Virus record (IMG/VR): IMGVR_UViG_3300036791_001299 | Span: 1-53,914 of that record | Origin: a virus | Lineage: Duplodnaviria > Caudoviricetes | DNA: 53,914 nt | Reading direction: 5' to 3' (one strand) | Part shown: in pieces, positions 3,975-50,287 of the stretch | How positions within the stretch are numbered: position 1 is the first letter of the stretch | Layout of the letters: each line of letters starts with the position of its first letter | The notes under the pieces: generated by a model | What the model was told of the DNA's origin: nothing | Databases searched by the model: none | What the model saw: the letters and a program-made list of their open reading frames with translations, nothing else | Position numbers and translations under genes: made by a program

Positions 3975-4918
3975 TGCTGCTCTCCTGAGCGATCCCATAC
4001 TTCCCATTCGTCTGCGGCGGGTGTGGCGGGTGTCTCTGGCACCGGCGCGGCGGGTTCCGGTGCCGGAGCGGCGGCGGCAACGCCAGCCGCCTTCATCTCG
4101 TTGTAAATCTGGCGGGCCAATTCCCGGCTGCGAATCTGATTTGAATGCTTGAGCCCACGGGCCGCGAGAACCTTGTAATAAAGCTCTTCGCCTATCTCTG
4201 ACTTAAGTGCCGCGAAGGCATCCAGCATCACCTTGTAGGCATTCTTCTCCGGCTGCGCGGGGGGTGTGACTAAAGGACCCGGTTGCATCAAGGGCGCGCC
4301 TCCGTCGACGTCCTGGCGGTGCATTTCCTCGGGAACATACATGCCGCCGCACTCGTCGGGGAAGGCCTTGCGCAGAGCACCCGCCTCAGCACATTTGATT
4401 AATTGGTTAGCGGGCATCCTTTTCCACATGGGGACCAAGTCAAAGCCGCCTTCTTTGCGTTTGTACCTGGGCGCGTATTCCTTGAACACGGCAATGGAAT
4501 AAAGCGGAGCCTGAAAGTCCTTGCGGTAGACTCCGACGCGGGCGGCTGCGGGCGGAGTGTCAGCCAGCCAGACTGGCAGCCATCGACCGCTGGCGTCGCA
4601 CCATTCCGGCGGAGTCTGGCCCGCGTATTTGCCACTGCGCTCGGCTTGCAGCCGGAAACCGTCAATGCCGGTTTGAATGGTCATGACATACTTGCCAGCC
4701 TCCTGGTCGTAGCGTTTGATGCAATAGATTTGTTTGGCGAACGGGTCAAGCCCTTTGTGCTTGCAAACCTCAATAAACAGCGAGAATTCGTCGTCGGTGG
4801 TATCCTTGGCGATGGTTTGCTTGAGCAGGTCGAGCTGGTCGCGATTGGGATTGAAACCACGGGGAAGGGTCTCAGCCTTCGGCGTTTCGATAATTTCAGT
4901 TCCAGGTGTCGGTGTCAT
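3971..4918 (-). CDS. bet: Phage recombination protein Bet/RecT (single-strand annealing)
   Basis: GLDPFAKQIY, IQTGIDGFRLQAERSGKYAG, WKRMPANQLIKCAEAGALRKAFP, GMYVPEEM. Confidence 0.92.
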   Translation of the reverse strand: MTPTPGTEIIETPKAETLPRGFNPNRDQLDLLKQTIAKDTTDDEFSLFIEVCKHKGLDPFAKQIYCIKRYDQEAGKYVMTIQTGIDGFRLQAERSGKYAGQTPPEWCDASGRWLPVWLADTPPAAARVGVYRKDFQAPLYSIAVFKEYAPRYKRKEGGFDLVPMWKRMPANQLIKCAEAGALRKAFPDECGGMYVPEEMHRQDVDGGAPLMQPGPLVTPPAQPEKNAYKVMLDAFAALKSEIGEELYYKVLAARGLKHSNQIRSRELARQIYNEMKAAGVAAAAPAPEPAAPVPETPATPAADEWEVWDRSGEQQ

Positions 4919-4933
4919 TGTCGTATTCCTCGG

Positions 4934-5389
4934 TTAAAATTGCTCAGTAGGTTTCAATGCCTGCTCAGCGGCTTGGTAGCTGAGACTGGTAGCTGAGACC
5001 AGAGCCATGCGCATAGCGATGGTCATGGCCAGACATTGCTCCACGTTTAAATTCCACTGCCGCACCATAATCTCGACGCGGCCATCGCGCACGTAGAGAG
5101 TGGCGGGAATCCAGGTCATGCCTTCCATCGGCGGTTGCGAGCAGAAGAATTCGATGCGCGTCAATTTGCCGTTCTGCGTCTCCGTAGGCTCGATACGGCA
5201 GAGCACCCGCTTCGCGTCTTTCAACTCGGTCTCGTGCTGCCGGTCGAGGTCGAAGGCGTCGATTACCGAATGGCATTGCTCGCACACCGCGTAGTCCTGA
5301 GAGCTGGGACCCGTTTCAGAGTCGTAGTCGAGGCGTGTCAGCATGCGGAATTCGGACGGCTGGCCGCAGGACGGGCAATTGAGTGTCAT
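4934..5389 (-). CDS. Hypothetical zinc-ribbon protein; C-terminus encoded by a CRISPR repeat copy
   Basis: CPSCG...CEQC; 3' end overlaps the solitary repeat. Confidence 0.6.
   Translation of the reverse strand: MTLNCPSCGQPSEFRMLTRLDYDSETGPSSQDYAVCEQCHSVIDAFDLDRQHETELKDAKRVLCRIEPTETQNGKLTRIEFFCSQPPMEGMTWIPATLYVRDGRVEIMVRQWNLNVEQCLAMTIAMRMALVSATSLSYQAAEQALKPTEQF
4951..4999 (+). repeat. Solitary CRISPR repeat plus 13-nt tandem duplication of its 3' end
   Basis: GTTTCAATGCCTGCTCAGCGGCTTGGTAGCTGAGAC (4951-4986) then TGGTAGCTGAGAC; 4 mismatches to the array consensus. Confidence 0.9.
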
Positions 5390-22910: not shown

Positions 22911-23442
22911 TTTTTAGTCCCCCTTCTTTTCCCGGTCCGATACACATGAAGTTAACGCCGTCGGGACCGGCGTCACCCATCTCGTCAAACAAAAGCAATA
23001 GCGACCAGAAATCCTGGCCCAGTTCATCGTTGGCGCGCGGCTCGGTCAGCGAAAACAGCCACAGATTGTGGTTGCAGAGATCCACATAGCGGATGTTGGG
23101 CGCTGTCTCCGGCACCGTGATCGGATAATTGACCGCCATTGCCAGCAGATCCGGCGCACTCAACGCGCCGCCGTTAACCTTCGCATTCCTGGCGCGCACA
23201 TATAACGCCACGCGATGCTTCCACATCGTCTGCCCGTCGAAGTTGCCCATCATGATGTCGTTGTAGGCGATCAGCATGCTCGGCTCGCGCATCTGGCCAA
23301 GCGCGCGCATGAGGGAATTTTCTTCGCCGGAATAGGAGTAATGCGCGGTGATGAACTGGCTGCCGCCCAGTTCAGCCGTCAACTGAGGGATGGACTGCAG
23401 CGATGCGAGCACCGCGTTGAGGACTGTGGTCGAAGTGAGCAT
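22888..23442 (-). CDS. Putative tail terminator / head-tail completion protein
   Basis: Position and size. Confidence 0.5.
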   Translation of the reverse strand: MLTSTTVLNAVLASLQSIPQLTAELGGSQFITAHYSYSGEENSLMRALGQMREPSMLIAYNDIMMGNFDGQTMWKHRVALYVRARNAKVNGGALSAPDLLAMAVNYPITVPETAPNIRYVDLCNHNLWLFSLTEPRANDELGQDFWSLLLLFDEMGDAGPDGVNFMCIGPGKEGGLKSGRSYTE

Positions 23443-29502: not shown

Positions 29503-29787
29503 CTACCAGAAACGCGCGTAATGCGCGTCCAGCCTGGGTGGCCAGTTTGCGCGCAGGTCGTGCGGTATTCCCTCCGCATCCAACGTTGCCGCAATTTCCG
29601 CAACAGTGAGAAGACCACAATTCTTGATATGCAGGAGATCCTGTGCGGTTGCCTTTAACAGATCTTCAAGGGTTTCAATGTCCCTCGTCCAGGCATAAGT
29701 AAGAGCTGAGATCGCTCTTCTACTCAAACATGGCCGAAGCTTCATTCCGAATTCAACCAGTTGCTTGTTCCTGTCGTCTTCCGGCAT
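29503..29787 (-). CDS. Stand-alone RNA polymerase alpha C-terminal-domain-like protein
   Basis: LSRRAISAL...IETLEDLLKATAQDLLHIKNCGLLTVAEI matches the alphaCTD pattern. Confidence 0.75.
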   Translation of the reverse strand: MPEDDRNKQLVEFGMKLRPCLSRRAISALTYAWTRDIETLEDLLKATAQDLLHIKNCGLLTVAEIAATLDAEGIPHDLRANWPPRLDAHYARFW

Positions 29788-36148: not shown

Positions 36149-38206
36149 TTACCGGCGGCGGAATCCGCCCCGCTGCGCGCCCAGACCCGGGTAGGCTGGC
36201 TGCGCAGTCACCGGTGCCGTCCAGGCGGCTTGAGTGGGCTGTGGCACCGGTGCCGGACGTGGCGGCGCTGCGCCTTCGATGGCAATAGCCGCCTCGAAAT
36301 GACGCCAGTGGTCTTCCCCAAACCGGTCCGCGCCCACAATCGAATAGGCCGCCCGGTTGTACACCGCGAGATCGATGGGCTCATTGCGCGGCGCGCGCTT
36401 CTCGTAGACGACGTCGCCGTTGGGCTTGACGATCTTCACCTCGGAGCATAAGCCTTCGAAGTACGTCATGTCATACATCGGCCAGTGATAACAACCGGTC
36501 ACCGGCGTATCGTCCACCGTAGGCACCGCGTGCCGCATCAAATCAAACAATTCAGCCTTGCAGCAGTTCACCCCGACACCCACAATGCGCGTCCCCTGCC
36601 GCTTGCGCGCCGCATCTTCCTTCGAAATGCTGGCAATGACCCGCAGCTGGTCCGGCGTACCCTTGATAGGCACCACCGTGCGCGCCGCGATCAACTTAAT
36701 ACCTTGCGGTCCGTAATGCAGCTGATGCCCCCGCCGCGTAAACTCGTATACCGGCTTCGGGTTTTTGCCGGTGTCGATGGTCATGCAAAGGATCGGCAGA
36801 CTCTTACCCGAGTTGTGCGCCCACTCGCGTCCCAATAACTCATACAGCTGGTCCCACAATTCCCGCGCGCTCACCGGCAACTCCTGGCCATTCTCGCTGA
36901 ACGCTTGCAGCACCCAGTAGCCCATCGACCAGTTTTCGCGGTTTCTACCCCAGGCCTTCACTTCAACCTCGAGACGCGCCGGATGCTCCTGGACGTCAAC
37001 CGCCGCCGTCAGGAACAGACCCCGCTGCGGCACCACCGCAGTATCCCCGAACGGATAAGCCTCCCGCCGCGCAAACAACAGATCCTTCTCCGGCGCTTCG
37101 CCTTCTTCCACCCATTCCTCGGCGAGCACCGTATTGATAAACGTTTTGAGACTCTGCCGGTCGTCTTTGGCATTCAGAAACTGCTGCGAAATGGACGCCG
37201 CCGACTTCCAGCTCGGTGGCACATACAAGTGGTTCAGCCAGAATCCAGCCGTGCGATTGCCCGCCTGCGGACGATCCGCGCGCCACTCGACATAGTGATC
37301 CACCGCATCCCAGCGCTCCCGCTCCGTCCACGGCTTATCGCAACTGATGCAGTAATAGCGCGCCGTCGCCGCCTGCAGCTCCCGCGCCACGGCGGTAGAC
37401 CACTTGACGTGATACCCGTCCCGGTCGCGGAATCGCAACACCTGCATGGTGCCGCAATGCGGACACGGCACGTAGGGGCGCCGCTGGTCGGACAACGCAA
37501 ATGCCCTGCCGATCCGGCTGCGCCCGGCCACCGTCGGACTGCACGCCAGGATACGCTTGCGGCGCGTCCCGAAGGTCATGGCGCGTTCCCACGCAAGGTC
37601 GATAGGATCACCTTCTCCCTGACGCTCCTGGCTGCCGCCGACATCCTGGTCGTACTTGTCGATCTCATCGCACACCAGATACCGGATGGTGTGCTGCGCC
37701 AGATCCACCGGCGTGCGCGCACTGATGATCAGCAGGTTGCCGCCCGGGAAGGTCTTGCTCTGGATGGTATTCGAGCCATCGTGGATGCCGTCCAGCACCT
37801 TATTGCGCAGGATCTGGCAATCCCGCACCATGGGCATCAACCGGCGCTTCGAGAAATCGCGCGCGGCGTCTTTTTTGGGCTCGACCAATAAGATGGGCCC
37901 CGGCTCCTCGGCGATCCAATACGCAATCGCCAGCATGATCGCGAGACTCTTGATCACCTGGGTGGACGACATGATCACCACGGTCTCGATGGTGTCGTCC
38001 GTTATGGCGTCGAGAATGCCCCGCTGCCAGCCGTACAACCGCAAGGGACCGGTCGACGAGCTGTACTCCGGCGACAGCACCACGTTGGCTTCCGACCATT
38101 GCGAAAGCGGCACCCGGGGACGCACCCGGAAGATCTCAGAGTGCAAGCTCTGAAATACCGGCGGCGGCCAGTCCCAGCCTGGAACTAAGAAAGATGGCGT
38201 TTCCAT
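36149..38206 (-). CDS. terL: Terminase large subunit (lambda gpA family)
   Basis: variant Walker A SSTQVIKS, LVCDEIDKY, CSPT, CPHCG, AAVDVQ, IDTG, RNEPIDL. Confidence 0.95.
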   Translation of the reverse strand: METPSFLVPGWDWPPPVFQSLHSEIFRVRPRVPLSQWSEANVVLSPEYSSSTGPLRLYGWQRGILDAITDDTIETVVIMSSTQVIKSLAIMLAIAYWIAEEPGPILLVEPKKDAARDFSKRRLMPMVRDCQILRNKVLDGIHDGSNTIQSKTFPGGNLLIISARTPVDLAQHTIRYLVCDEIDKYDQDVGGSQERQGEGDPIDLAWERAMTFGTRRKRILACSPTVAGRSRIGRAFALSDQRRPYVPCPHCGTMQVLRFRDRDGYHVKWSTAVARELQAATARYYCISCDKPWTERERWDAVDHYVEWRADRPQAGNRTAGFWLNHLYVPPSWKSAASISQQFLNAKDDRQSLKTFINTVLAEEWVEEGEAPEKDLLFARREAYPFGDTAVVPQRGLFLTAAVDVQEHPARLEVEVKAWGRNRENWSMGYWVLQAFSENGQELPVSARELWDQLYELLGREWAHNSGKSLPILCMTIDTGKNPKPVYEFTRRGHQLHYGPQGIKLIAARTVVPIKGTPDQLRVIASISKEDAARKRQGTRIVGVGVNCCKAELFDLMRHAVPTVDDTPVTGCYHWPMYDMTYFEGLCSEVKIVKPNGDVVYEKRAPRNEPIDLAVYNRAAYSIVGADRFGEDHWRHFEAAIAIEGAAPPRPAPVPQPTQAAWTAPVTAQPAYPGLGAQRGGFRRR

Positions 38207-38351: not shown

Positions 38352-38618
38352 GTCTCACCTATCAAGCCGGTGAACAGGCATTGCGTAGCTTTTCTCCATA
38401 ATAATTTCTCCGTAGGTCTCACCAACCAAGCCGGTGAACAGGCATTGCGACTTTAGTGCATGATAGTCTCAGTTACCAGGCCACCAAGCAGGCATTGCGT
38501 CTCCCTCATCCTCGTCCCGGCTACCAAAGCCGCCGAGCAGGCATTGCTTGGTTCCGGCCCCATCTCGACTAGAGCCTTCTGCGTTTCAGCTACCAAGCCG
38601 CTGAACAGGCATTGTGGA
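38352..38618 (-). CRISPR. Distal array segment: 5 variant repeats
   Basis: Repeats at 38352, 38416, 38466, 38514, 38583; spacers about 28, 14, 12, 32 nt. Confidence 0.8.
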
Positions 38619-39263
38619 CTCCTCGGCAATCGCGCGCTGCGCCAATACTAACAGGTCCACGCTGTCAGGCAGCGCCGCGGCCCGTACTGCCACATATGCT
38701 GCCTCCGCCACCCTCCTCATTACCGTAATCTCTATTTGCTGGCACGCCGCGCAGGCCGCACACGTGGCGCACCACGCTGCTTTGGCCGCTCCCCTTGCCT
38801 CCTTCGAGCGATGCTGAACTGCCCGGACTGATGCCGCCATCCCGGCTGCGACTGCCTTTTCGTGAGAACGATCCGTACCGTTTAGCCACCCATACGCCCA
38901 GCCCACAAAGGACGGATCGCGGTCCACCGCCATCGCGCACATAACCGCAAACCGCACCCTCGCGCTTGCCGCAACCTCCGGCATCTCGATGCGCCGGATG
39001 GTGGTCAGCGACCTACACCCACACTTGAGTTGTCCGTCACGCAGTCCTATTTCGCCCTCAGCCTCCCAGAGCAGTATGTTTCGGGGATCAACGTATATTG
39101 CCGGGATCAATAAAGCCGCCAGGAGCGGATGCTCGTGAGCATGTATCCACCCGTCCGTAAAAAGCTCCTTGCCGGTGCCGGTCGCGGCGTGGGTGACATT
39201 CTCCCCCCACTCGATCCCGTCTCCCGACTGGTCATTGGCGTCAGCCACTTTATAGAGGGTCAT
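38586..39263 (-). CDS. Phage hypothetical protein embedded in the CRISPR array
   Basis: 225 aa, AAGG RBS, flanked by repeats on both sides; stop codon lies inside a repeat. Confidence 0.75.
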   Translation of the reverse strand: MTLYKVADANDQSGDGIEWGENVTHAATGTGKELFTDGWIHAHEHPLLAALLIPAIYVDPRNILLWEAEGEIGLRDGQLKCGCRSLTTIRRIEMPEVAASARVRFAVMCAMAVDRDPSFVGWAYGWLNGTDRSHEKAVAAGMAASVRAVQHRSKEARGAAKAAWCATCAACAACQQIEITVMRRVAEAAYVAVRAAALPDSVDLLVLAQRAIAEESTMPVQRLGS

Positions 39264-39325: not shown

Positions 39326-39362
39326 GTCGGCAATGCCTGTTCAGTGGCTTGGTTACTGAGGC
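39326..39362 (+). repeat. Inverted CRISPR repeat copy
   Basis: GTCGGCAATGCCTGTTCAGTGGCTTGGTTACTGAGGC, opposite orientation to the array. Confidence 0.85.
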
Positions 39363-39380
39363 CGTCAACACACATCGCGC

Positions 39381-41379
39381 GTCCCGGCTACCAAGCCGCC
39401 GGGCAGGCACCTCGGATTACTTCACGGATGTCTCAGCTACTAGGCCGCCGAGCAGGCGTTGCGACAGACCATAAGATCTTCGCGTCACACCAACTAAGCC
39501 GGTGAACAGGCATTGCAACGCGGAATGCGACGTGCGTTGGCGTCCACCCGAAGAGTCGCGTCTCAGCTACCAAGCCGCTGAGCAGGCACCGCGACTATCG
39601 CTAAAGGCTAATGTCCCAGCTACCAAGCCGCTGAACAGGCGTTGCAACGCAGCTTGCTGACCCAGATCAAGACCTCCAGATCCATCCCGTCTCAGTAACT
39701 AAGCCACCGAGCAGGCGTTGCGACCCCATGTCTCTATCAACGGACGTCACGACAAACAAGTCTCAGCTACCAAGCCGCTGAACAGGCGTTGCGACGCACG
39801 GCGGCGGCGATCCGCACCAGGAAGTCCACGTCTCAGCTACCAAGCCACCGAGCAGGCGTTGCGACACCACGAAAGGATCGGGAGCAATGACGTCTCAGTA
39901 ACCAAGCCACTGAGCAGGCGTTGCGACGGAGGGTGGCGTGATCGCTCATGAAACCAGTATGCGCTGTCTCAGCTACCAAGCCACTGAGCAGGCGTTGCGA
40001 CGCTGCATCCTTCGGTTGTTCCCATCGCACCTGCCACGTCTCAGCTACCAAGCCACTGAGCAGGCGTTGCGACGATTTAAACCCTGGTATATGCTCATGC
40101 ATAATAGTCGGGTCTCAGCTACCAAGCCACTGAGCAGGCGTTGCGACTGCCAGCCATTTTTCGAGCGCCGCCGTTGGGACGCGTCTCAGCTACCAAGCCA
40201 CTGAGCAGGCGTTGCGACGATTTAAACCCTGGTATATGCTCATGCATAATAGTCGGGTCTCAGCTACCAAGCCACTGAGCAGGCGTTGCGACGCTGTTAA
40301 AGTAGCGCGGTGCCGTTTGTGCGGTTAGTTGTCTCAGTAACCAAGCCACTGAGCAGGCGTTGCGACCACGTCGACAGATCTCTTTCACGGCGATGACGTC
40401 CTGTCTCAGCTACCAAGCCACTGAGCAGGCGTTGCGACGGGGTCGAGTATGACGCCGATATTCAGCCTCGAGCCGTTGTCTCAGCTACCAAGCCACTGAG
40501 CAGGCGTTGCGACGTTCGAAAACTGGCCGGAGATCGCCACCACTGACCCTGTCTCAGCTACCAAGCCACTGAGCAGGCGTTGCGACAGGAGCCGCCCTTG
40601 CAGGCGGATGATCTGGCGCTTGTCTCAGCTACCAAGCCACTGAGCAGGCGTTGCGACACTGCGATCCGGTGCGACCGGCGGGTATCAGCAGTAGTCTCAG
40701 CTACCAAGCCACTGAGCAGGCGTTGCGACGTTGTATTTCGGACAATACTATCCGTTGGAATTTGTTGTCTCAGCTACCAAGCCACTGAGCAGGCGTTGCG
40801 ACATCCGTGGTCCGCGTACTGCGGGTGCCGACATCGTCGTCTCAGCTACCAAGCCACTGAGCAGGCGTTGCGACGTCCAGGTCAAAATCATCAAGCACGG
40901 ACGGTTTAGCGTCTCAGCTACCAAGCCACTGAGCAGGCGTTGCGACCTAAACCCCGGAAAAAGTTCGAAGCACCCTACCCTGTCTCAGCTACCAAGCCAC
41001 TGAGCAGGCGTTGCGACGCGGTGACATCGCCGAGCGCCGCGCCCCAGATGTAGAGTCTCAGCTACCAAGCCACTGAGCAGGCGTTGCGACACGGAAACTG
41101 GTCGGGCTGGAGGAAATCGAGCAGTAGGGGTCTCAGCTACCAAGCCACTGAGCAGGCGTTGCGACCGCGGTCCGGCCTCCGGTCTCCTCTTTCTCGGAGC
41201 GTCTCAGCTACCAAGCCACTGAGCAGGCGTTGCGACAACCCGGACCTGCTCGCTCGATACCGGAACCGTCTTGTCTCAGCTACCAAGCCACTGAGCAGGC
41301 GTTGCGACCATTCGGCAGGGGTAGATACCCCCCAACTACCTACGTCTCAGCTACCAAGCCACTGAGCAGGCGTTGCGAC
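39381..41379 (-). CRISPR. CRISPR array, 29 repeats of 36 nt (21 near-identical, 8 variant)
   Basis: Minus-strand repeat GTCGCAACGCCTGCTCAGTGGCTTGGTAGCTGAGAC; mostly 34-40 nt spacers; divergence increases away from the cas gene. Confidence 0.98.
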
Positions 41380-41382
41380 AGC

Positions 41383-43191
41383 CTAGTCGCCAGCTGCCAT
41401 GTTTTCATCAGGTTCCAGACCGGTTTGCGAGCGGTCTGGTTTTGCGCCCTCTTCCACCTCCGTAACTCGTTGTTTCTTATCAGATGCCACCTCTGGCATC
41501 GCCCCACCGCTCGCACGCATCTGCCCCCACGCCTTCAACAGATTCTTCGCCGCATTCAAATCCTGGTCCCACAACATCCCGCACCCACCGCACCGGTGCA
41601 TGATACTCGCCGCTTGATCCCACTCATGCGCATACCCGCACGCATGGCACTCCCGCGTCGTATACGGCGCAGGCAGCTCAACCACCGCCACCCCTTCCCG
41701 GCTGCACGCACTCTTAATCGCCAGCCGCAACGTCCCCGTACTGGCCATAAACCGGTACGTCCCCGACCCCGTGACAACCGCCGCCGACTCCGGCTGAGGA
41801 TGCTCCACCACCGAGCGCAAATCAAATTCCTCCACCACCACCACGTCATAATCCCGCGCCAGCCCTGCCGCGAAATCCCGATACCGCGCCAGCCTCCGGC
41901 CCGTCATCTGATGCTGCAGATTCCGCCACCAGTCCGTCAAATGCAGAAACTGCTTGCGCCACCGGACCGCCTCCGCAAACATTCCCTCATCACCCGGCAG
42001 CCGGTTATCCGCCCACCAGCGGATCAACGCCGCCACACGTTCCCCGGACCGCCACTGATACAGATACGCCGACCGCGTCCGCCACTCCTCCGCCAACTCC
42101 CGCTGGCCCAGCCACTCCACTAGCTCCGGGTGAAACTGCTCCCGGCTCTTATCGCAGATCGACCGCAGATCCGCGACCTTCTGGAACTGCGCGATATCGG
42201 AGCCCTCAATCCGCAATTCACCATGGCCGCCCAGCGAGTCAGCCCAGTATCCCACCCGCACCGCGCCCTCCGGCTTCAATCGCCAGCCCAGATCGAGCGC
42301 CAATACCCGGCTGCCGGTCTTCTCACTAGGCCGCGGCAAGCTGATGCTCACATTCAGCTGCCAGTGCGTCTTCCCCGCCAGGATGCGGCGGCTGGCGCTT
42401 ACACTCTTGATACGCGCCTCCGGAGGCAGATCCCGATGGTAAACAATCGGAATCTCAACCCACACCGGCGACCGATCCGCATTGCTGCCGATCCGCACGC
42501 GCGCATACCGCCACTTCCGGCCCGGCGTCGGTGGATCCACCTGGAACAGCGTGTTGGTGCCGCCTACGCAGTCGCTGACGCACGCGCCACCCTGCACCTG
42601 CGCGGTAACCGTCCCTTCGCCGCGGAAGCCGTGATAACGCAGCTCGCTATCCCCCTTGCCCTTGCGCGCCAGCTGACGCGCCGTCTCCGCCCGCTGAATG
42701 ATGTCGTTATAGGAGCCCCAATAGAGCCCCAGACCCGCCGCCGCTTGCCGCGCCTTAATCGTGCGCCGGTACGCCCGCTCCGTATTGGCATCCAGCTGCT
42801 GCCGCTTGGCCTCATGCCGCGATTCCTTGGTCGCCTTCCGCTCCGCGATCAACGGCTTTCGCTCCGCCTCCGCCGCCGCAATGCGCTCCGGCAGATCACC
42901 AAGATCCGCGCCCTTGCGTTTACGCGCGGACTGGCGAGCCTTCTTGATCAACTCCCGGCACAAACTGATCTCCGCCGACAGCTCATCGATCCGCGTTTGC
43001 TGGTCATCCCGCATGATCCGCCGGTACGCCGTATCGCGCGTACGCTCGATGGTGACCAGGACATTCCATAGCCGGTTGCCCAGCCGCATCTGTCCTCGAG
43101 CCGAATCTTCATTGATCACCGGTGCGATCCGCGCCGGTACCGTGCCATAGGAGTACACCCGGCTGGCTGTATCGTCTGTTTTACGCTGCAT
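41383..43191 (-). CDS. cas12m: Type V CRISPR effector, Cas12m-like (V-M/V-U1, TnpB-derived), ~602 aa
   Basis: LYWGSYN, LRYHGFRGEGTVTAQVQ, PIVYHRDLP, RuvC-I ALDLGWR, RuvC-II VVVEE, TTRECHACG...CGGCG zinc finger, RuvC-III DQDLNAAKNL; abuts the array. Confidence 0.85.
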   Translation of the reverse strand: MQRKTDDTASRVYSYGTVPARIAPVINEDSARGQMRLGNRLWNVLVTIERTRDTAYRRIMRDDQQTRIDELSAEISLCRELIKKARQSARKRKGADLGDLPERIAAAEAERKPLIAERKATKESRHEAKRQQLDANTERAYRRTIKARQAAAGLGLYWGSYNDIIQRAETARQLARKGKGDSELRYHGFRGEGTVTAQVQGGACVSDCVGGTNTLFQVDPPTPGRKWRYARVRIGSNADRSPVWVEIPIVYHRDLPPEARIKSVSASRRILAGKTHWQLNVSISLPRPSEKTGSRVLALDLGWRLKPEGAVRVGYWADSLGGHGELRIEGSDIAQFQKVADLRSICDKSREQFHPELVEWLGQRELAEEWRTRSAYLYQWRSGERVAALIRWWADNRLPGDEGMFAEAVRWRKQFLHLTDWWRNLQHQMTGRRLARYRDFAAGLARDYDVVVVEEFDLRSVVEHPQPESAAVVTGSGTYRFMASTGTLRLAIKSACSREGVAVVELPAPYTTRECHACGYAHEWDQAASIMHRCGGCGMLWDQDLNAAKNLLKAWGQMRASGGAMPEVASDKKQRVTEVEEGAKPDRSQTGLEPDENMAAGD

Positions 43192-43198
43192 GCTTAAA

Positions 43199-43228
43199 AT
43201 TGTATTTAAAGGTGGGCCAAATTGCGAA
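43199..43228 (-). promoter_or_regulatory. Candidate leaderless promoter for cas12m (TTCGCA-N18-TACAAT-N7-ATG)
   Basis: No SD before ATG 43191; -10 box 7 nt upstream. Confidence 0.5.
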
Positions 43229-43250
43229 AACAACGGCGGGTGGTTTTGTT

Positions 43251-43709
43251 TTATCGTCGCGGCTCGAAAACGATAACCTGGACGGACTCCATCGAGCCAA
43301 GCGCCTGCTCTATTTCCGGACGCACATCACCCCAGCTCAGCCCGCCATTGCCGCATCCCAGCGCAGGTATTGCTAGGGACCGAATATTTTCCTCTTCAAT
43401 CACACGGCGAAGATCCCGCAGTCCGTCGACAATCCATTTCAGCTGGGAGGGATGCCGCCAGTGCTCCTTCGTGGGAAAGTTGATCACCCACTGCGGACCG
43501 TGAAGGTCGTTGGTCTTCGTAACAAACATGCGCCCGATTCTGACTTCATTGCGGTTGCACGCTAATACGTAGGCGCGATAATTCTTCGGATAAGCATATC
43601 TGAATTTGAACGCAATCCCCGCGCCCATCGTGCCGACCGTGTTCACGGTATTGACCAGCGCTTCCACTGGCTCTCTCAAGAGATCCCCGTCTACCCGAAA
43701 TGTGATCAT
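43251..43709 (-). CDS. DarG-like macrodomain (ADP-ribosyl hydrolase)
   Basis: GDLL...ALVNTVNTVGTMGAGIA..F, INFPTKEHWR, SLAIPALGCGNGGLSW. Confidence 0.88.
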   Translation of the reverse strand: MITFRVDGDLLREPVEALVNTVNTVGTMGAGIAFKFRYAYPKNYRAYVLACNRNEVRIGRMFVTKTNDLHGPQWVINFPTKEHWRHPSQLKWIVDGLRDLRRVIEEENIRSLAIPALGCGNGGLSWGDVRPEIEQALGSMESVQVIVFEPRR

Positions 43710-44248
43710 GCCACCTTCTGTGCGTCGAGATCGGCGTTGAGTATCCGGTTAATGTTTTCCCACTTCGCCAGTACCCGCAGCATGGCGGCCTCCAGGACAG
43801 CGCGGATCTTCAGCGGCTCGGTCTCGGACGCCAGCGAGTCAGCCAGCTCGGAAGGCAGCCTCAGCAATTCATCGCGCCCATCGACCAGGAACTTTGCCGC
43901 CCACCGCGACACATAGCCGACCGGCAACAATTCCCCGCGCCGCACCATATTCTCAATCTCTTGCTTCTCGGCGAGCGCCCTCGCCCGGCGCAGCTTCGCG
44001 GACTCCAGCGCATCGGTACGCTCCGCCGCCGCGATCACCATCTCGTATTCCGAGCGCGGAGTCTCTTTCTCCGCCACCGCCTTCTCCGGAATAGGTGGCA
44101 CCGGCGTTGTACCATGCCGCTGCGCCGCAAACGCACGTATCTGCTCGACCGTCTTGCCCGCCCGCATCATATTCGATACCGTCTTGGGCGGCAGATTCAC
44201 ATCGCGCGCGAGCGAATTAACGCCTACATAGGTGACCCGTTGCATCAT
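43706..44248 (-). CDS. terS: Terminase small subunit (Nu1-like)
   Basis: N-terminal HTH; AKLRRARALAEKQEIENMVRRGELLP coiled coil typical of Nu1. Confidence 0.75.
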   Translation of the reverse strand: MMQRVTYVGVNSLARDVNLPPKTVSNMMRAGKTVEQIRAFAAQRHGTTPVPPIPEKAVAEKETPRSEYEMVIAAAERTDALESAKLRRARALAEKQEIENMVRRGELLPVGYVSRWAAKFLVDGRDELLRLPSELADSLASETEPLKIRAVLEAAMLRVLAKWENINRILNADLDAQKVA

Positions 44249-44593: not shown

Positions 44594-44626
44594 ATCTCAT
44601 TAAACTACCCCCAAATGTAGCTAACA

Positions 44627-44665
44627 AAGTTATCTATCAAAGTTATCTATTTAAGTTATGTATTT
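44627..44665. repeat. 3 x 13-bp AT-rich direct repeats
   Basis: AAGTTATCTATCA / AAGTTATCTATTT / AAGTTATGTATTT. Confidence 0.75.
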
Positions 44666-44817
44666 AAGCCAACTTGTGTGTTTTCATATACATAGAGCAT
44701 TATGAAGGCGTTTTACATCCGCCATTCATTCGCGCAGGCCGCACTGCGCCCACCCGCGCGCGGCGACCACCCCATGACCTAGGACCCATTTGCTGCCGTA
44801 GCGAGCCCGTAGCGGCC

Positions 44818-44945
44818 TTTGTTTTCAATGACTTACAGTGGATCTTTGCTGTCAACGGCTTACAGCTCGGCTCTTTGTTTTCAATAGTTTGCAGACTATG
44901 TTTGTTTTCAATTGTTTGCGAGCAAGTCCTTTGTTTTCAGCAGAG
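44818..44945 (+). promoter_or_regulatory. Five phased IHF-like motifs (TTTGTTTTCAAnnnnTT)
   Basis: Copies at 44818, 44845, 44874, 44901, 44930 (27/29-bp spacing). Confidence 0.55.
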
Positions 44946-45269
44946 CGCCGGCATTGGCGCGGTATCAATCCGCTAAGTGCAAGCGTATCAACGCGATACG
45001 CTGGTCGACCCACGCGAAACCCGCATAAACATTGGCCAAAACGCATATTACGAGCGAATACGACCACGAGCGCAAAACGCCGTGCGATGCTGGACTCATC
45101 AGAATACTTGACAGCGCCCTATACGCATTACGCCATGAGACGTGGACGTCAAGGGTACATACCTCAGCGACGCGCGTCGTTTTCAACGCAATCACTCAAT
45201 TACATAAACAGAAGCTTCAACTCGCTGATGAATTTTACTCTCACTAAGCCCGAAACCAAGGAACACACC

Positions 45270-46049
45270 ATGAAACACACCAAAGCAACCCGTAAACGTA
45301 AGATCAAATTCCCCGCACGTCGTAAGCCTGTGGGATACCGCAAACTGATCAATATCGATTCCGACGCTAAGACCATCAAGGGTCGCAAACAGAATTACCT
45401 AACGGGGATCATGTACCTTGCGCCTCACACGTCTAGCGGGGTTATCGACACATGCGGAATGGCAAGTGCGGGTTGTATTGCAGCATGCCTTAATCTGTCG
45501 GGACGTGCGGAAGTTTTCCCCGATATCATCGAAGCGAGGATAGACAAAACGCGGTTCATGGTGTCGAATCCCGACGCATTCCGAGCATCTCTTGTGTATG
45601 ACGTCGAAACCGTCCGCCGTCGTGCTCTGAAACAAGGAATGAAACCCGCGGTAAGGATCAATGGGACATCCGATCTACCAAAGCTTGTTACTGCGGTTGC
45701 GGGCCTATTTCCTGATGTCCAGTTTTACGACTACACGAAGCTTCCTAACCCGTGGCTCCGGCAATTGCCGAATTACAGTCTGACGTTCAGCCACTCCGAA
45801 ACAAACCTACAGGCGTGCCTTGACGCACTAGCGCATGGCGTCAACGTCGCAGTGGTTTTCGGGCTTAAGAAGGGCACGCCGATGCCTGCAACGTGGCATG
45901 GATACCGCGTTGTCAATGGCGACGATACCGACTTGCGCTTCACGGATCCGAAGGGCGCTGTGGTCGGCTTGTACGCCAAGGGACGCGCGAAAAAAGACTG
46001 CAGCGGATTCGTCGTACGCGATTTGATCCAAATCGCGCTAGTAGCCTAG
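45270..46049 (+). CDS. Gp88-like phage protein (three-Cys motif)
   Basis: YLAP...CGMASAGCIAACL, VRINGTSD, QFYDYTK, YSLTFSHSE, GDDTDLRF, GFV. Confidence 0.7.
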   Translation: MKHTKATRKRKIKFPARRKPVGYRKLINIDSDAKTIKGRKQNYLTGIMYLAPHTSSGVIDTCGMASAGCIAACLNLSGRAEVFPDIIEARIDKTRFMVSNPDAFRASLVYDVETVRRRALKQGMKPAVRINGTSDLPKLVTAVAGLFPDVQFYDYTKLPNPWLRQLPNYSLTFSHSETNLQACLDALAHGVNVAVVFGLKKGTPMPATWHGYRVVNGDDTDLRFTDPKGAVVGLYAKGRAKKDCSGFVVRDLIQIALVA

Positions 46050-46130
46050 GTTTGAGTCCTGACAAGGACGGTATACGCGACGCCTATACCGTCAAGTCTG
46101 AATTTAAACCACACCCAAGGAACACACCAA

Positions 46131-46235
46131 ATGATCATCGGAACATCTTACTTTGTCTCAAAATCAAAGGCCATACGCTACTATCGCGCATACGAAGGTA
46201 ACTTACTCGCACTAGGACGAATCCTATTTTTCTAA
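46131..46235 (+). CDS. Small 34-aa ORF
   Basis: Preceded by AAGGAACACACCAA; MIIGTSYFVSKSKAIRYYRAYEGNLLALGRILFF. Confidence 0.45.
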   Translation: MIIGTSYFVSKSKAIRYYRAYEGNLLALGRILFF

Positions 46236-46255
46236 CTAACGCAAGGAACACACCA

Positions 46256-46510
46256 ATGAACACACTATCGAAAAAACAGCGCAAAGCAATCCTGAAGTCT
46301 GCAGACGCAAAGTATATCCGCATTCGGATTATACCTGGAATCGCACTTGCACCCAAGGAAACCGGTGAATCGTGGTATTACACTACACGTGGCGGTGCTC
46401 GCATCCTACATCCGAGCGCCTACAGCAAACGCGGGTTTTCCAACATGGTCTATCATGCGTCGACGCGTAGGATTGAAGTAGGTCAACAATGGGTCGACCA
46501 CGTAAGCTAG
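46256..46510 (+). CDS. Hypothetical basic protein
   Basis: AAGGAACACACCAATG start. Confidence 0.6.
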   Translation: MNTLSKKQRKAILKSADAKYIRIRIIPGIALAPKETGESWYYTTRGGARILHPSAYSKRGFSNMVYHASTRRIEVGQQWVDHVS

Positions 46511-46634
46511 CGTGCGCATGCGGGCACCCCGCGACAAAGTATGGTCTCTGCATTGGATGCCAGTACCGCGAGACCATACGCGCGATACCGCGCGCAGTAT
46601 TGGCACACTGGAGAAAACGTCAAAAGTGAAAAAT

Positions 46635-46664
46635 AAACCCACGCTAAACTAGCGTGGGTTTTTT
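46635..46664 (+). terminator. Intrinsic terminator
   Basis: AAACCCACGCTA-AAC-TAGCGTGGGTTTTTT. Confidence 0.8.
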
Positions 46665-46669
46665 AGTTT

Positions 46670-46825
46670 GCGGTCGGCAGCCGTGCTGGCGGTCGGCAGC
46701 CGTGCTGGCGGTCGGCAGCCGTGCTGTGCGGTCGGCAGCCGTGCTGTGCGGTCGGCAGCCGTGCTGTGCGGTCGGCAGCCGTGCTGTGCGGTCGGCAGCC
46801 GTGCTGTGCGGTCGGCAGCCGTGCT
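46670..46825. repeat. Tandem repeat, 8 x 19-20 bp
   Basis: GCGGTCGGCAGCCGTGCTG(T). Confidence 0.95.
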
Positions 46826-47147
46826 TACCAAGGAAAAGACTATTTTCGCCTTTTCTTCATTTTTATTGTTGATAACAAATGAGTTAACATTTGATCTTCG
46901 ATAGTCACACGAAAAAAGACATTTGTGGGCTAATTTCTGTCAACTGTACTGACAAATATATTTTGCGACGCGGTCAAACGGTCTCTAGCGCGCGCCATAA
47001 CCCGCGCCAAAGGCCGGTTTTTCTATTGTTTTCAATAGCTTGCAACGGTGTGACATATGACGTACGCGCTAAACTGTTGAAAACAATACTTATCCTTTGT
47101 TTTCAACAATTTAACGACTGTCACACGCCTACTGATGTGCGACACGG

Positions 47148-47375
47148 GAAGGAAAGGCGAAAACGCATGTGAAAAGGGGTCTTGGCGAAATAGTAAGGGG
47201 TCCCGGAAAATTTGAAAATTTCAGGAAAATTCTGGCCCGGCATTTTTTCCCGGCCAAAAAAGGGGTCCCCGGCTGGGCCGCCGTTCCCGGCAACACGCAT
47301 CCCTTGTTGACAAAAACTGCTCTCCTACACGATACTCATGTGTACAAGGCGGCGGTCACTGACTGCCAGCCTTAA
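47148..47375 (+). repeat. 228-bp direct repeat, copy 1, containing promoter TTGACA-N18-GATACT (47307-47336)
   Basis: Near-identical to 49087-49314 except for a short central segment. Confidence 0.92.
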
Positions 47376-47605
47376 TAGTTGAGACTCCACCGGAGTCCAG
47401 GAAGCAGGTCATCGACCTTTGAGTATCAAACCCACCTTGACGCCGCGCAATCCCGCAGTCGACCATCCCCGAATAAGCTCATCTCCCGTCGTCCACCACC
47501 GTTAAAGCCTAAAGCTCTTGACCGGCGGTGGTGATGACAGCACGGCATTGGTTTCGACCAGTGTCATGCTGCCCGCATCGCGGGAGAAGAGAGTTAACAC
47601 ACCAA

Positions 47606-48565
47606 ATGGAAGCAACAATCACCTACTTGCTCACCGAGCAAGCTCAACGCAAAGCCATGGCGGCCACTGGCCAGCCAGTTCACCGAAAGCAGACGATGGT
47701 TATCGACGTCCCAGGCGACGATCTCATGCTATTCCCGATCTCAGACGACGGGACTATCTCCGTTGACGTGAGTGGCTTCAGCTGCAGCCGCTGGGCCGAT
47801 CCCCTTAACGCTGCGGGATGGTCACCATGGAACGGTGGAACCGGCACCACGGCGGTTGCAATCAACCCGCCGTTTCTGGCCGACCTACAGCGCGGTCTAG
47901 CTGTTTTGACCGCTCGCAAAGAAGAGCAAAGGCAGCTCACCGCCAGCAATGATAAGTACAACCGGCAGATGACCGAGGCCGCCTATTTGCTGTTTTTTGC
48001 CGACCGCGACGCGCGAATCAACACTACCGCGCTTCGCGGACTCCGCGAATATGTGGGCAATCTGCACTCACCAGCCGACTGGTGGCCAGAGCAACATGCT
48101 GAATTTGTCGCGGAAATCAACCGCCGGAATGCCGCTGACGTGGCGGCGAAGAAAGCCGCCGAGCAAGCCAAGGAAGATGCCAAGTCGCGCTACATCGCGG
48201 ACTGGGCGGCCCATGCGGCTGCTAATATCCGCGAGCAATTCAACGATGGGCTGCTATCGCGCAGCCAGATACTCGAGTTGATCGCGGACGAATTTTTCTC
48301 CAAGCTCAAGCTGCCGGAGCACACCCCCCACACGTGCTCCAACCGGCAGTGTCCATGCAGCGATGACCGGGTGGAAATTGTGTCCATCGAAGCTTATGCC
48401 GCATGGCGCGAGATTAAGGCCAACGTCCCCGAAGGAGCAACGGTCAAATTTTCTAAAGTTACCAGCGATGATAATCTACTAGAGCCCTATTACACGGCTG
48501 ACTTGAGCCTACCGTGTGGTCCGTTCACATTCGACCGCCGCATCCAGCTGAATCTCCAAGACTAG
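47606..48565 (+). CDS. Hypothetical protein (319 aa)
   Basis: AACACACCAAATG start; long ORF with a coiled coil and CSNRQCPC. Confidence 0.75.
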   Translation: MEATITYLLTEQAQRKAMAATGQPVHRKQTMVIDVPGDDLMLFPISDDGTISVDVSGFSCSRWADPLNAAGWSPWNGGTGTTAVAINPPFLADLQRGLAVLTARKEEQRQLTASNDKYNRQMTEAAYLLFFADRDARINTTALRGLREYVGNLHSPADWWPEQHAEFVAEINRRNAADVAAKKAAEQAKEDAKSRYIADWAAHAAANIREQFNDGLLSRSQILELIADEFFSKLKLPEHTPHTCSNRQCPCSDDRVEIVSIEAYAAWREIKANVPEGATVKFSKVTSDDNLLEPYYTADLSLPCGPFTFDRRIQLNLQD

Positions 48566-48598
48566 TCTTCAAAGCGGCCAGGATATATAATGCGCACG

Positions 48599-48730
48599 AT
48601 GAACCTTCATCTGGCGTTTATGGTCCTGGCCGCATTTTGCTTTGCACTAGCGGCGCTCGATGTCACCGTGCCGCGGGTCAATCTGATGGCGCTGGGACTC
48701 TGCTTCGCGGCGATTTCGGCGTTGCTCTAA
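48599..48730 (+). CDS. 43-aa two-helix membrane protein
   Basis: MNLHLAFMVLAAFCFALAALDVTVPRVNLMALGLCFAAISALL; TATAAT 7 nt upstream. Confidence 0.6.
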   Translation: MNLHLAFMVLAAFCFALAALDVTVPRVNLMALGLCFAAISALL

Positions 48731-48797
48731 ATGTTGGAATGGCAAAACGACGCCAGTTACCTACCATCGCCACTGAGGATTTTATGACCGCTATCGA

Positions 48798-48835
48798 GCC
48801 CACATTGCGCCACTGAGCGAATGTGGGCTTTTTTG
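48798..48835 (+). terminator. Intrinsic terminator
   Basis: AGCCCACATT...AATGTGGGCT followed by a T run. Confidence 0.7.
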
Positions 48836-48846
48836 TTCGTGGAGCC

Positions 48847-49063
48847 GTGGTGCCCGTGGTGGTGTCGGCGTGCCCGCGGTGGCATCGGCGTGTCCGCGGT
48901 GAGCATCGGCGTGCCCGCGGTGGCATCGGCGTGCCCGTGGTGGTGTCGGCGTGCCCGCGGTGGTGTCGGCGTGCCCGCGGTGGCATCGGCGTGTCCGCGG
49001 TGAGCATCGGCGTGCCCGCGGTGGCATCGGCGTGCCCGTGGTGGTGTCGGCGTGCCCGCGGTG
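48847..49063. repeat. Imperfect tandem repeat, ~10 x 20-21 bp
   Basis: (G)GTGG(CA/TG)TCGGCGTG(C/T)CCG(C/T)G units. Confidence 0.9.
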
Positions 49064-49086
49064 GAGCACGTTAAGAGTCCGAGGTT

Positions 49087-49314
49087 GAAGGAAAGGCGAA
49101 AACGCATGTGAAAAGGGGTCTTGGCGAAATAGTAAGGGGTCCCGGAAAATTTGAAAAATCCCAGGAAAAACCGGCCCTGGAAAATTTCCCGGCCAAAAAA
49201 GGGGTCCCCGGCTGGGCCGCCGTTCCCGGCAACACGCATCCCTTGTTGACAAAAACTGCTCTCCTACACGATACTCATGTGTACAAGGCGGCGGTCACTG
49301 ACTGCCAGCCTTAA
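49087..49314 (+). repeat. 228-bp direct repeat, copy 2, with promoter TTGACA-N18-GATACT (49246-49275)
   Basis: Near-identical to 47148-47375. Confidence 0.92.
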
Positions 49315-49318
49315 GCCG

Positions 49319-49354
49319 GTCTTAATGCCCGTTCAGTGGCTTGGTAGCTGAGAC
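49319..49354 (+). repeat. Solitary CRISPR repeat
   Basis: GTCTTAATGCCCGTTCAGTGGCTTGGTAGCTGAGAC; last 22 nt identical to the array consensus. Confidence 0.9.
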
Positions 49355-50287
49355 CCCTATCTTAATTCGGATCTCGCGTGGAGCCGGTGTATTGCCGCGT
49401 GGACCGCGCACAGTTTGCGGCGACCAGAATACGCCATGCAGTTTGCCAAACAAGCCACGGCCTTCGCGATAGTCGCGGAAGTGGCCGCGGCAGATATGGA
49501 GCGACTTCTGGATGCTGCCGCCGGGATCATGCGACCGGCCTTCGCGGCGAAGAATCTGTTTCAGCGGCTCGATCACCAGCGTCTTCGGCACGACCGGCTT
49601 AACACCGTGGTTGCGCTCGTACTTTTTGGCGAGTTTGGGCGGCACCGGACCGTCGACCACCGCCACGTTTTTGCAATGCAGAAATGAGATGGCGAGCAAT
49701 GCCGGATGCAAGTAAGTGATGAAATTGTGCATCTCGTTTTTATAGTCGTCCGCGCAGTAAATCACCATTGCGGGTTGCTGCAGCAGGTGTCCATCAGCAT
49801 CGATAAACAGCACAATTGAGCCGATGGGTCCGGTTGCCGTGACACTGCGGAAACCGTAATCGTGAAATTGCTCGCAGTGCAGAATCCACCGCGTGCCGTC
49901 CGGAATCGGCATGGCTTTACGCACATGGTCCGGGTTGGCGACGATGCAAAGCGCGCCTTGACGACCGTTAGGCATGAACGCCGTCACGTCGGTGTCGCCT
50001 TTCTCTTTCGAGTGGATACGCCGGGGCATTTTACACTCCAGCCAAAACATCGGATAGGGTGGTGCTAAATTCGGGAAATCATCCCGCAGATCCCAATACT
50101 CCTGGTCGCTCGAATAGTAATAATCAGCAACGTTGTCGATTAGTAGCACCGGCAGCTGCGGGTCGTGTAGGCATGTCCACACACGAGCGCCCAGCTCATT
50201 CCAGCGCTCTTGAAGCTGCGGCGCGATAAACCACGGCATGGCGATTTTGGCTCCAGGTGCGCGGATGTCGTCGATTAAACGCGGCAT
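49322..50287 (-). CDS. Hypothetical phage protein; C-terminus encoded by a CRISPR repeat copy
   Basis: 321 aa, HICRGHF...LFG...FW...VRG motif; ends VSATKPLNGH. Confidence 0.75.
   Translation of the reverse strand: MPRLIDDIRAPGAKIAMPWFIAPQLQERWNELGARVWTCLHDPQLPVLLIDNVADYYYSSDQEYWDLRDDFPNLAPPYPMFWLECKMPRRIHSKEKGDTDVTAFMPNGRQGALCIVANPDHVRKAMPIPDGTRWILHCEQFHDYGFRSVTATGPIGSIVLFIDADGHLLQQPAMVIYCADDYKNEMHNFITYLHPALLAISFLHCKNVAVVDGPVPPKLAKKYERNHGVKPVVPKTLVIEPLKQILRREGRSHDPGGSIQKSLHICRGHFRDYREGRGLFGKLHGVFWSPQTVRGPRGNTPAPREIRIKIGVSATKPLNGH

Follow-up and report, generated by a model that had tools for sequence, protein, structure and literature searches.

An off-array type V-M CRISPR repeat at a convergent gene end in a Cas12m-encoding phage: a possible orphan crRNA-like unit

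A solitary copy of a type V-M CRISPR repeat, located at 49319-49354, is described here in a stretch of viral DNA, hereafter the window, that comprises the entire IMG/VR virus record IMGVR_UViG_3300036791_001299 (53,914 bp, linear; CheckV completeness 76%). The record corresponds to a lambda-like tailed phage that encodes its own Cas12m, an effector that binds but does not cut DNA and that trims its own precursor CRISPR RNA (pre-crRNA) (PMC11013384; PMC10442227). The copy follows a promoter-like site and contains the stop codon of a convergent 321-aa gene. We tentatively favor, as a reading that falls somewhat short of probable, that the 49319 copy is a handle placed by recombination which may still be transcribed and bound by Cas12m, giving an orphan crRNA-like antisense RNA. 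The observations beneath this reading comprise the repeat sequence, its placement at a gene end, a duplicated upstream module, selection on the repeat fold, and the recurrence of such copies in other Cas12m elements. A Cas12m-bound, promoter-driven RNA would be the best single account of them, because it accommodates together the intact part of the scaffold, the fold selection, the promoter context, and the restriction of the copies to Cas12m genomes.

A covariance model built on 30 distinct repeat copies, from the window, the related phage genome G001, and one bacterial contig, recovers 37 copies in the window, 34 on the minus strand and three on the plus strand (4951, 39327, and 49319), the next match having an E value of 0.36. 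The 49319 copy stands outside any array, with the closest other copy 7.9 kb off and cas12m at 6 kb, separated from it by five open reading frames (ORFs) on the other strand; a search with the exact 36-mer, allowing ≤3 mismatches, returns this site only, and 0 of 100 shuffles contain a match. Five of its 36 positions differ from the array consensus (4, 5, 8, 12, and 14), all of them within the 5' 14 nt, and the last 22 nt at the 3' side equal the consensus exactly. The variants at positions 8, 12, and 14 have similar counterparts in the array repeats of the window, in G001, or in a bacterial copy (L014), and the 5' seven nucleotides of the Cas12m2 scaffold, positions -36 to -30, are reported as disordered (PMC10442227). 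At each of the six loci examined (the window, G001, Virus Rctr197k, and plasmids pMESIL02, pPRO1, and pLM6), the array lies behind cas12m, on the strand of that gene, and its repeat ends in ...GAGAC or a close variant. This strand rule, together with G-U wobble pairs that occur in the sense orientation only and the layout reported for Cas12m2 (PMC10442227), assigns the plus strand as the crRNA sense of the 49319 copy. The original prediction had placed here a promoter-like site, a 43-nt gap, and an intact repeat in crRNA sense, and each of its coordinates holds (Table 1).

The repeat copies are under selection for an RNA fold. The stem pairs in 98.9% of the cells across the 30 distinct copies, dropping to 17-56% in slid controls, and the main stem displays changes on both sides in five of its six pairs; none of 500 shuffles reaches the observed covariation score, a count that is not to be read as a probability, the copies being kin. 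The G-U pairs are valid in the sense RNA only, and the 49319 copy can form all nine pairs of the model, one of them as U-G. Among the off-array copies of G001 that lie outside the model, three keep the stem, two of them by new compensatory changes (CCCGAG/CTCGGG at 23228 and CTCGGC/GCCGAG at 25450). The architecture matches the pseudoknot-and-stem arrangement of the Cas12m2 crRNA (PMC10442227), comprising (i) a 36-nt repeat that ends in ...GAGAC, (ii) a stem of 5-6 bp at about -23 to -18 and -8 to -3, and (iii) a crossing GCC/GGC helix. Compared to a type V-M crRNA, the 49319 copy differs in lacking a second repeat and in having as its "spacer" the end of a neighboring gene instead of a captured sequence.

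Upstream of the repeat, the promoter-like site comprises TTGACA (49246-49251), an 18-nt spacer, and GATACT (49270-49275), followed by 43 nt (49276-49318) that lead to the repeat. Sites matching at least 9 of the 12 consensus bases are not rare (five observed vs 3.9 expected); those matching 10 of 12 on the plus strand between 44400 and 50400 are two only, at 49246-49275 and at its duplicate, 47307-47336, located in the two copies of a 228-nt module, A and B. The 13 differences between the modules all fall in 27 nt (49158-49184). In module A the shared TAA is followed by TAGTTGAGAC, in which 9 of 10 bases match the repeat 3' end, so that the homology resumes at the 3' end of the repeat and stops there; this stump indicates that the duplicated unit once extended through a repeat, with the homology ending where a spacer would start. 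Module A heads the 345-aa gene, past a strong two-way terminator (46635-46661), and 47307-47336 is the sole plus-strand site matching at least 9 of 12 between that terminator and the gene. As the only candidate for the 345-aa gene, the motif is, by its sequence context, plausibly a real promoter.

Copies outside arrays recur in other elements that encode Cas12m. Among 78 viral loci coding for a relative of the 321-aa protein, Cas12m is found in one only (L047), which belongs to G001 (61,383 bp, 95% complete); its Cas12m is 52% identical to that of the window in the tblastn match and 51% in an alignment, and is followed by an eroded array. A search with the alignment of the two Cas12m sequences recovered G001 only. 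The model finds 17 copies in G001, 12 in the array and five outside it (21955, 22036, 23228, 25450, and 50536), all on the array strand. The 22036 and 21955 copies form a tandem duplicate of a gene end plus repeat, the first copy of which contains the stop of a 106-aa ORF, with an ATG 21 nt past the second; at 23228, a 164-aa ORF stops within the copy and a terminator-like hairpin comes after it; and the 25450 copy lies 4 nt behind TTGACA-N17-AAGAAT (10/12) at the head of an operon coding for an 88-aa ORF and an SNF2-like helicase. Off-array copies at gene ends, the pattern for which the original prediction had proposed a survey of other Cas12m phages, are thus also present in G001 and not peculiar to the window. 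The other 77 related loci, which lack Cas12m (1.22 Mb), contain no repeat copy at E ≤0.1, so that off-array copies occur in two of two Cas12m phages of the family vs none of 77 loci without the effector.

Beyond the family, Virus Rctr197k (Cas12m 32% identical) carries one copy 64 kb from its array and 24 nt ahead of tRNA-Met; plasmid pLM6 has a single inverted copy, some 41 kb away from the array and ahead of a gene that runs on the copy's own strand. A promoter-like site matching at least 9 of 12 lies ≤43 nt upstream on the same strand at three of nine off-array loci (49319 and 4951 in the window and 25450 in G001), compared to about 0.13 loci expected from 15 sites in about 26 kb, both strands counted; the copies of Rctr197k and pLM6 have no promoter-like site nearby. 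Some repeat copies are themselves promoter-like, such as 23228-23263 in G001 (L108 3228-3263, minus strand), which reads TTGAAA-N17-GATACT (9/12). The Rctr197k copy (L021 2943-2966; KX853510.1 175442-175465, minus strand) is placed such that an RNase P cut would give a guide of defined length, and about 150 nt upstream of it there is another repeat-like unit, which is degenerate and adjoins a tRNA-like 3' half. Two related bacterial chromosomal contigs display a conserved, lone, near-identical repeat between an HpiC1-like gene and hom, coding for homoserine dehydrogenase (L014 1986-2021, the same DNA as L016; L013 and L015). A k-mer screen beside the Cas12m gene of a Manganitrophus plasmid detected no array. 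Two sets of repeat-word matches were judged chance and set aside: four matches of a 17-mer in the viral contig collection, two of them tRNA-like, and three orthologous Marinobacterium matches of a 21-mer in the genome contig collection, which lack the stem.

The favored reading proposes the following path, in which transcription, Cas12m binding, and an effect of the 49319 unit on expression are all predicted from sequence. The promoter in the duplicated module would start transcription near 49282, and the RNA would run through the leader hairpin and the repeat before continuing antisense into the 321-aa gene; the phage Cas12m would recognize the scaffold, the last 22 nt of which equal the consensus, and trim the RNA; and the product would be an orphan crRNA-like RNA, with a guide complementary to the last codons of the 321-aa gene, that we would expect to work in complex with Cas12m, as an antisense or regulatory RNA of the convergent junction and not in classical interference. 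The sole perfect DNA match of the guide is its own locus, where the repeat occupies the position of the protospacer-adjacent motif (PAM), which makes canonical PAM-dependent silencing of this genome unlikely; the 49319 RNA thus probably does not silence its own genome by such binding. The target search that the original prediction had proposed for its would-be spacer gave no target: the guide and the array spacers have only chance-level matches in the window, the 78 related loci, and G001, so that no PAM can be derived, and the array region has no match among GenBank phages. A guide aimed at kin phages was considered and dropped, since CCC, the three bases with which it opens, stands in place of the stop codon and would mismatch the relatives.

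Several observations weigh against this reading. The guide has eight partial matches in the window (≤5 mismatches in 17 nt) vs 6.7 in shuffles, and none of the 17 sequences that follow the G001 repeats, 12 in the array and five outside it, has a second site in G001. Plasmids pPRO1 and pMESIL02, both with Cas12m, show no off-array copy by the patterns used. The promoter-like site of the 4951 copy overlaps the start and ribosome-site region of recT and may be a by-product, and that of the 49319 copy lies inside a possible 68-codon ORF, the G+C content by codon position being not distinctive and fitting coding or noncoding sequence. In addition, modules A and B are identical over their last 130 nt, a likeness that may reflect recent duplication and be uninformative on selection; the plus strand after the repeat has no clear terminator, the nearest being a weak 5-bp stem at 49540; and the origin of the gene's new TAA from two of the divergent repeat bases shows selection on the other strand as well.

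The gene end itself records how the copy came to its position. The 321-aa protein has 622 homologues, mostly of about 307 aa; relatives of the gene are also present in a metagenome-assembled genome that its source names Terracidiphilus. Of 21 homologues that were aligned, 19 end in ...REIEVK[VIL] and the window protein continues for 11 more residues (GVSATKPLNGH); across 34 related viral loci, 30 stop directly after ...K/R[VIL] and four run 1-5 residues longer. The new gene tail (49322-49357) consists of ten codons and a stop encoded in the repeat (49322-49354), preceded by GGG (49355-49357), which replaces the native stop and touches the repeat 3' end. The TAA at 49322-49324, made by two of the five divergent repeat bases, confirms the earlier claim that this gene stops within the repeat. 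Downstream of the gene the sequence differs among the 34 relatives, except for L035 and L036, which are the same; a conserved gene end followed by divergent sequences marks the junction as a mosaic breakpoint. The neighboring segment (about 44594-49318) is on the opposite strand and contains ORFs of 84, 345, and 100 aa without homologues in the 78 related loci, as is the case for the genes of 46256-48816, and a GP88-like gene that shares its strand with the 321-aa homologue in three relatives lies on the strand opposite to the 321-aa gene in the window. These sequence comparisons, together with the RecT and Gam-like protein that the phage encodes, support well that recombination placed the 49319 copy at the border of a gene. 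Inversion of the whole segment between the 49319 copy and the array was considered and rejected, the orientation of terS, cas12m, and terL being the same as in a relative, L027. Single-protein searches of the viral contig collection with the 321-aa protein and with Cas12m gave no match.

The same evidence admits the strongest of the competing explanations, which we nevertheless regard as rather unlikely: that the copy is an inert scar, debris of recombination between the genome and the array, or a former mini-array with its leader, tolerated as a stop arose quickly and now without RNA function. A repeat that abuts a natural gene end at a mosaic breakpoint is what a scar would leave, and so are a module homology that ends exactly at the repeat 3' end, with copy A keeping only a 10-nt stump, the 13-nt partial duplicate after the 4951 copy, and the tandem gene-end and repeat duplicate of G001, which read as signs of sloppy recombination; the phage encodes RecT, and no target was found. 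An inert remnant would not account for the uneven decay, in which the 5' 14 nt carry all five changes and the 22 nt corresponding to the structured scaffold carry none, for a stem kept by compensatory changes in the off-array copies of G001 and in degenerate copies of the window, or for the enrichment of promoter-like sites just upstream of the copies. The suggestion that the repeats act as gene-cassette junctions, the other half of the earlier proposal beside regulatory RNAs, fits in so far as the repeat lies ≤3 nt from the conserved end of the 321-aa gene, where the relatives diverge.

A second explanation, which we consider unlikely, holds that the promoter is incidental, the module being a duplicated 68-codon gene (49108-49314 in module B) that stops 4 nt ahead of the repeat, with the plus-strand RNA as its mRNA tail. 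The frame is open in both module copies, the homology ends at its TAA, and a repeat on or just past a stop codon is the pattern of G001; the product bears a likeness to Ig-like repeat proteins that is weak (E 7e-11 summed over six stretches, 32-34% identity). Against such a gene, homologues are absent from the 78 related loci and, among 1.84 billion representatives, the product matches only itself and three of these repeat proteins; the 13 differences between the modules alter most of a 13-residue stretch and build a minus-strand terminator-like hairpin instead; and the codon-position composition noted above does not single it out as coding.

Less likely still, the repeats may be cis elements, that is, handles in 5' leaders or between genes that let Cas12m cut, cap, or block the phage's own RNAs or operons with no need for a guide-target pair; at 49319 the handle would mark the end of the plus-strand unit and shield the convergent operon. 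Placement gives this explanation its appeal: eight of ten off-array or mini-array loci are in sense to the local genes, at junctions or leaders, including (i) the intergenic 21955/22036 and 23228 copies and the operon-leader 25450 copy of G001, (ii) the mini-array of the window, ahead of a small ORF, (iii) the Rctr197k copy ahead of tRNA-Met, and (iv) the pLM6 copy upstream of its same-strand gene. Module A resembles a former promoter-handle-leader-gene unit, and the absence of second-site targets in the window phage and G001 would be expected. Nevertheless, the 4951 and 39327 copies are antisense to local genes, and Cas12m is known for pre-crRNA processing and DNA binding (PMC11013384; PMC10442227), no report of action on mRNA having been found in the accessible texts. 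A DNA roadblock would in turn require the GAC of the repeat end as PAM, and the Cas12m PAMs reported are T- or C-rich (PMC11013384). A broader version, in which the effector of Cas12m phages would also regulate the phage's own genes by acting on their transcripts or by binding the adjacent DNA, the handles serving as cis-regulatory operon punctuation besides immune memory and the 49319 unit policing the convergent junction, is a speculation that we consider unlikely.

Finally, it is very improbable that the lone repeat is a Racr- or Cracr-like RNA anti-CRISPR that would serve to decoy or re-program the Cas12m of a host or rival element: Racr are defined by their form as solitary repeat units of viruses (PMC10651486; PMC11656645), viral crlRNAs with their own promoters have been described (10.1101/2024.10.29.618823), and the bacterial contigs with the repeat beside hom suggest that cells in such samples may use this repeat family, but the repeat is that of the array which the phage itself carries, the effector is likewise phage-encoded, and none of the 77 related loci without Cas12m has a copy, though they would gain equally from a decoy.

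Type V-M systems are enriched on plasmids and present in some prophages (PMC11656645), and a 2026 preprint claims the first phage Cas12m (10.64898/2026.09.14.751636). Stand-alone repeats have been described for types I and V-A, in a report whose accessible text mentions V-M only as a silencing system (10.1101/2023.03.03.530964), and in phages as Racr and Cracr (PMC10651486; 10.1101/2024.10.29.618823). The original prediction did not recognize dispersed repeats as described for Cas12m, and a survey of openly accessible main texts found no description of off-array V-M repeats within a Cas12m-encoding element. Like crlRNA, CreR, and CreA, the 49319 copy is a stand-alone, partly diverged repeat with a promoter-like site, whose predicted role is to supply a fixed guide to the cognate effector (10.1101/2023.03.03.530964; 10.1101/2024.12.27.630466). 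It differs from them in type, being V-M, in location, since those RNAs lie inside cas loci and the 49319 copy lies far from cas12m at a gene end, and in pairing, since their pseudo-spacers are reported to pair partly with a cas or toxin promoter beside a PAM and the 49319 guide has no match beyond chance in the window. With Racr and Cracr it shares a single repeat unit in a phage genome, apart from the array and plausibly transcribed as a small RNA (PMC10651486; 10.1101/2024.10.29.618823); those units mimic host repeats and subvert host Cas proteins, whereas the repeat at 49319 is of the type of the phage's own array and effector, and copies occur only in the Cas12m-encoding members of the phage family. 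Known stand-alone repeats are cas regulators (crlRNA) or viral decoys against host Cas proteins (Racr, Cracr), whereas the element, the effector, and the array all belong here to one phage.

Two other kinds of precedent are also relevant. The oop RNA of phage lambda is a short transcript, driven by a promoter, that converges on a gene of the opposite strand and overlaps its 3' end, with its own terminator and no CRISPR repeat; the convergent 3'-end geometry fits the 49319 unit, at which no clear terminator was found. Mosaic phages carry conserved boundary sequences at module junctions, and CRISPR loci undergo spacer-protospacer recombination. The repeat resembles such boundary sequences as one short sequence present at several gene junctions, one of them where relatives diverge, but differs in that its copies display selection for an RNA fold, which a pure DNA homology patch does not need. 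The placement at gene ends offers a concrete case for how CRISPR repeats spread beyond arrays. If Cas12m binds the RNAs, a non-cutting DNA-binding effector would serve a second, built-in purpose, either the control of phage genes or rivalry between close kin, and the sites would represent natural, compact promoter-handle-guide units for a very small Cas protein.

Table 1. Features of the window that bear on the solitary repeat at 49319 and on the Cas12m locus
Feature	Position	Strand	Remarks
Off-array (solitary) type V-M repeat	49319-49354	+	crRNA sense; 31/36 match to consensus; 49.1 bits, E 9e-10 (covariance model)
Would-be guide	49355-49394	+	CCC, then the last conserved 321-aa gene codons in reverse complement
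321-aa gene	49322-50287	-	Conserved phage family PHROG 20769, function unknown
Sigma-70-like promoter site TTGACA-N18-GATACT	49246-49275	+	10/12 consensus match
Module B, 228 nt	49087-49314	+	Three AAGGGGTC boxes, promoter-like site, leader hairpin; 94% identical to 47148-47375
Module A and repeat stump TAGTTGAGAC (47376-47385)	47148-47385	+	Upstream of the 345-aa gene (47528-48565)
Terminator-like hairpin and T-run	49159-49182	-	140 nt past the 321-aa stop; built from the 13 module B-specific bases
Inverted off-array copy and 13-nt duplicate of its 3' end	4951-4999	+	Copy at 4951-4986; overlaps the 3' end of ORF 4934-5389; adjoins recT
Inverted off-array copy	39327-39362	+	Faces the last array repeat (39381-39416)
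Mini-array, five degenerate repeats	38352-38618	-	Between the 225-aa gene and terL; spacers 14-31 nt
Main CRISPR array, 29 repeats	39381-41379	-	Begins 3 nt past the cas12m stop
cas12m (616 aa)	41383-43233	-	E 9.7e-89 to PDB 23vw Cas12m; E 1e-23 to Cas12m2; Pfam Cas12f1-like_TNB
terS	43706-44248	-	
terL	36149-38206	-	

The remaining copies of the window qualify two further claims of the original prediction. A phage-wide use of the repeat is overstated, the total by the covariance model being three off-array copies and the 5-repeat mini-array. Likewise, two genes end inside a repeat copy and not three: besides the 321-aa gene (49322-50287), the 225-aa gene (38586-39263) has its TGA (38586-38588) inside the 38583-38618 copy, with its last 10 residues coded by the repeat, whereas the third, ORF 4934-5389, reads through the whole 4951 repeat and the 13-nt partial duplicate and stops 15 nt past the repeat. 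This Zn-ribbon ORF has no homologues, and a promoter-like GTGTCA-N17-TAAAAT (9/12) lies on the plus strand at 4912-4940, 10 nt upstream of the 4951 copy. Full-length homologues of the 225-aa protein end at about ...AIAEE of the window protein; some carry PF24703, and they occur in many other contexts. The 225-aa gene forms in effect a 762-nt "spacer" of the array between two inverted repeat copies (38583-38618 and 39327-39362). The 39327 copy and the last array repeat (39327-39416) can pair, on either strand, into a long hairpin (-44 kcal/mol, z -3.5 to -3.8), which could end or process the array transcript. The mini-array ends 8 nt ahead of a small ORF upstream of terL.

The terminase, portal, S49 protease, and major head genes of the phage are all on the minus strand, and TerL is ≤36% identical to its counterparts in GenBank phages, indicating a distant relationship only. 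A search for sequencing runs that contain this DNA found two DNA runs of soil metagenomes, one of them possibly its source, and no RNA run. The interval between terS and terL comprises, all on the minus strand, a macro-domain gene, cas12m, the 29-repeat array, the 225-aa gene, and the 5-repeat mini-array. In L027 (18955-20949, compared with 41383-44248 of the window), whose TerL is 80% identical, terS adjoins terL, and the macro-domain gene, cas12m, array, and 225-aa gene of the window are an insert. The spacers of the main array range from 13 to 40 nt and its distal repeats are degenerate; a 38-nt spacer is present twice (40074-40111 and 40219-40256) within a duplicated 111-nt repeat-spacer unit. 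The distal repeats (39381-39724 and 38352-38618) alternate with very short spacers of 13, 14, 14, 17, and 18 nt, mostly at or below the 17-bp heteroduplex reported for Cas12m2, and the G001 array is eroded likewise.

Rfam and tRNA scans of the window were empty. The RNA predicted for the 49319 unit shows no special stability when folded (z -1.3 to -1.4), and its promoter-leader pattern has no match in the viral contig collection. The phage codes for RecT and a Gam-like protein; a 94-aa ORF of the head module (29503-29787) has a Pfam match (E 2e-6) to the C-terminal domain of the RNA polymerase alpha subunit, and a 1344-aa ORF contains a 54-nt tandem repeat of 2.3 copies (17033-17155). Two different 20-nt tandem arrays, of 7.9 copies (46669-46825) and 10.6 copies (48850-49064), lie one ahead of each 228-nt module and may be iterons or binding sites. 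In addition, a 25-nt motif (CTTTGTTTTCAATAG...) occurs five times in 44817-44924 and 47024-47119, around the point where the GP88-like gene (44838-46049) begins and ahead of module A, and may represent a set of operators.

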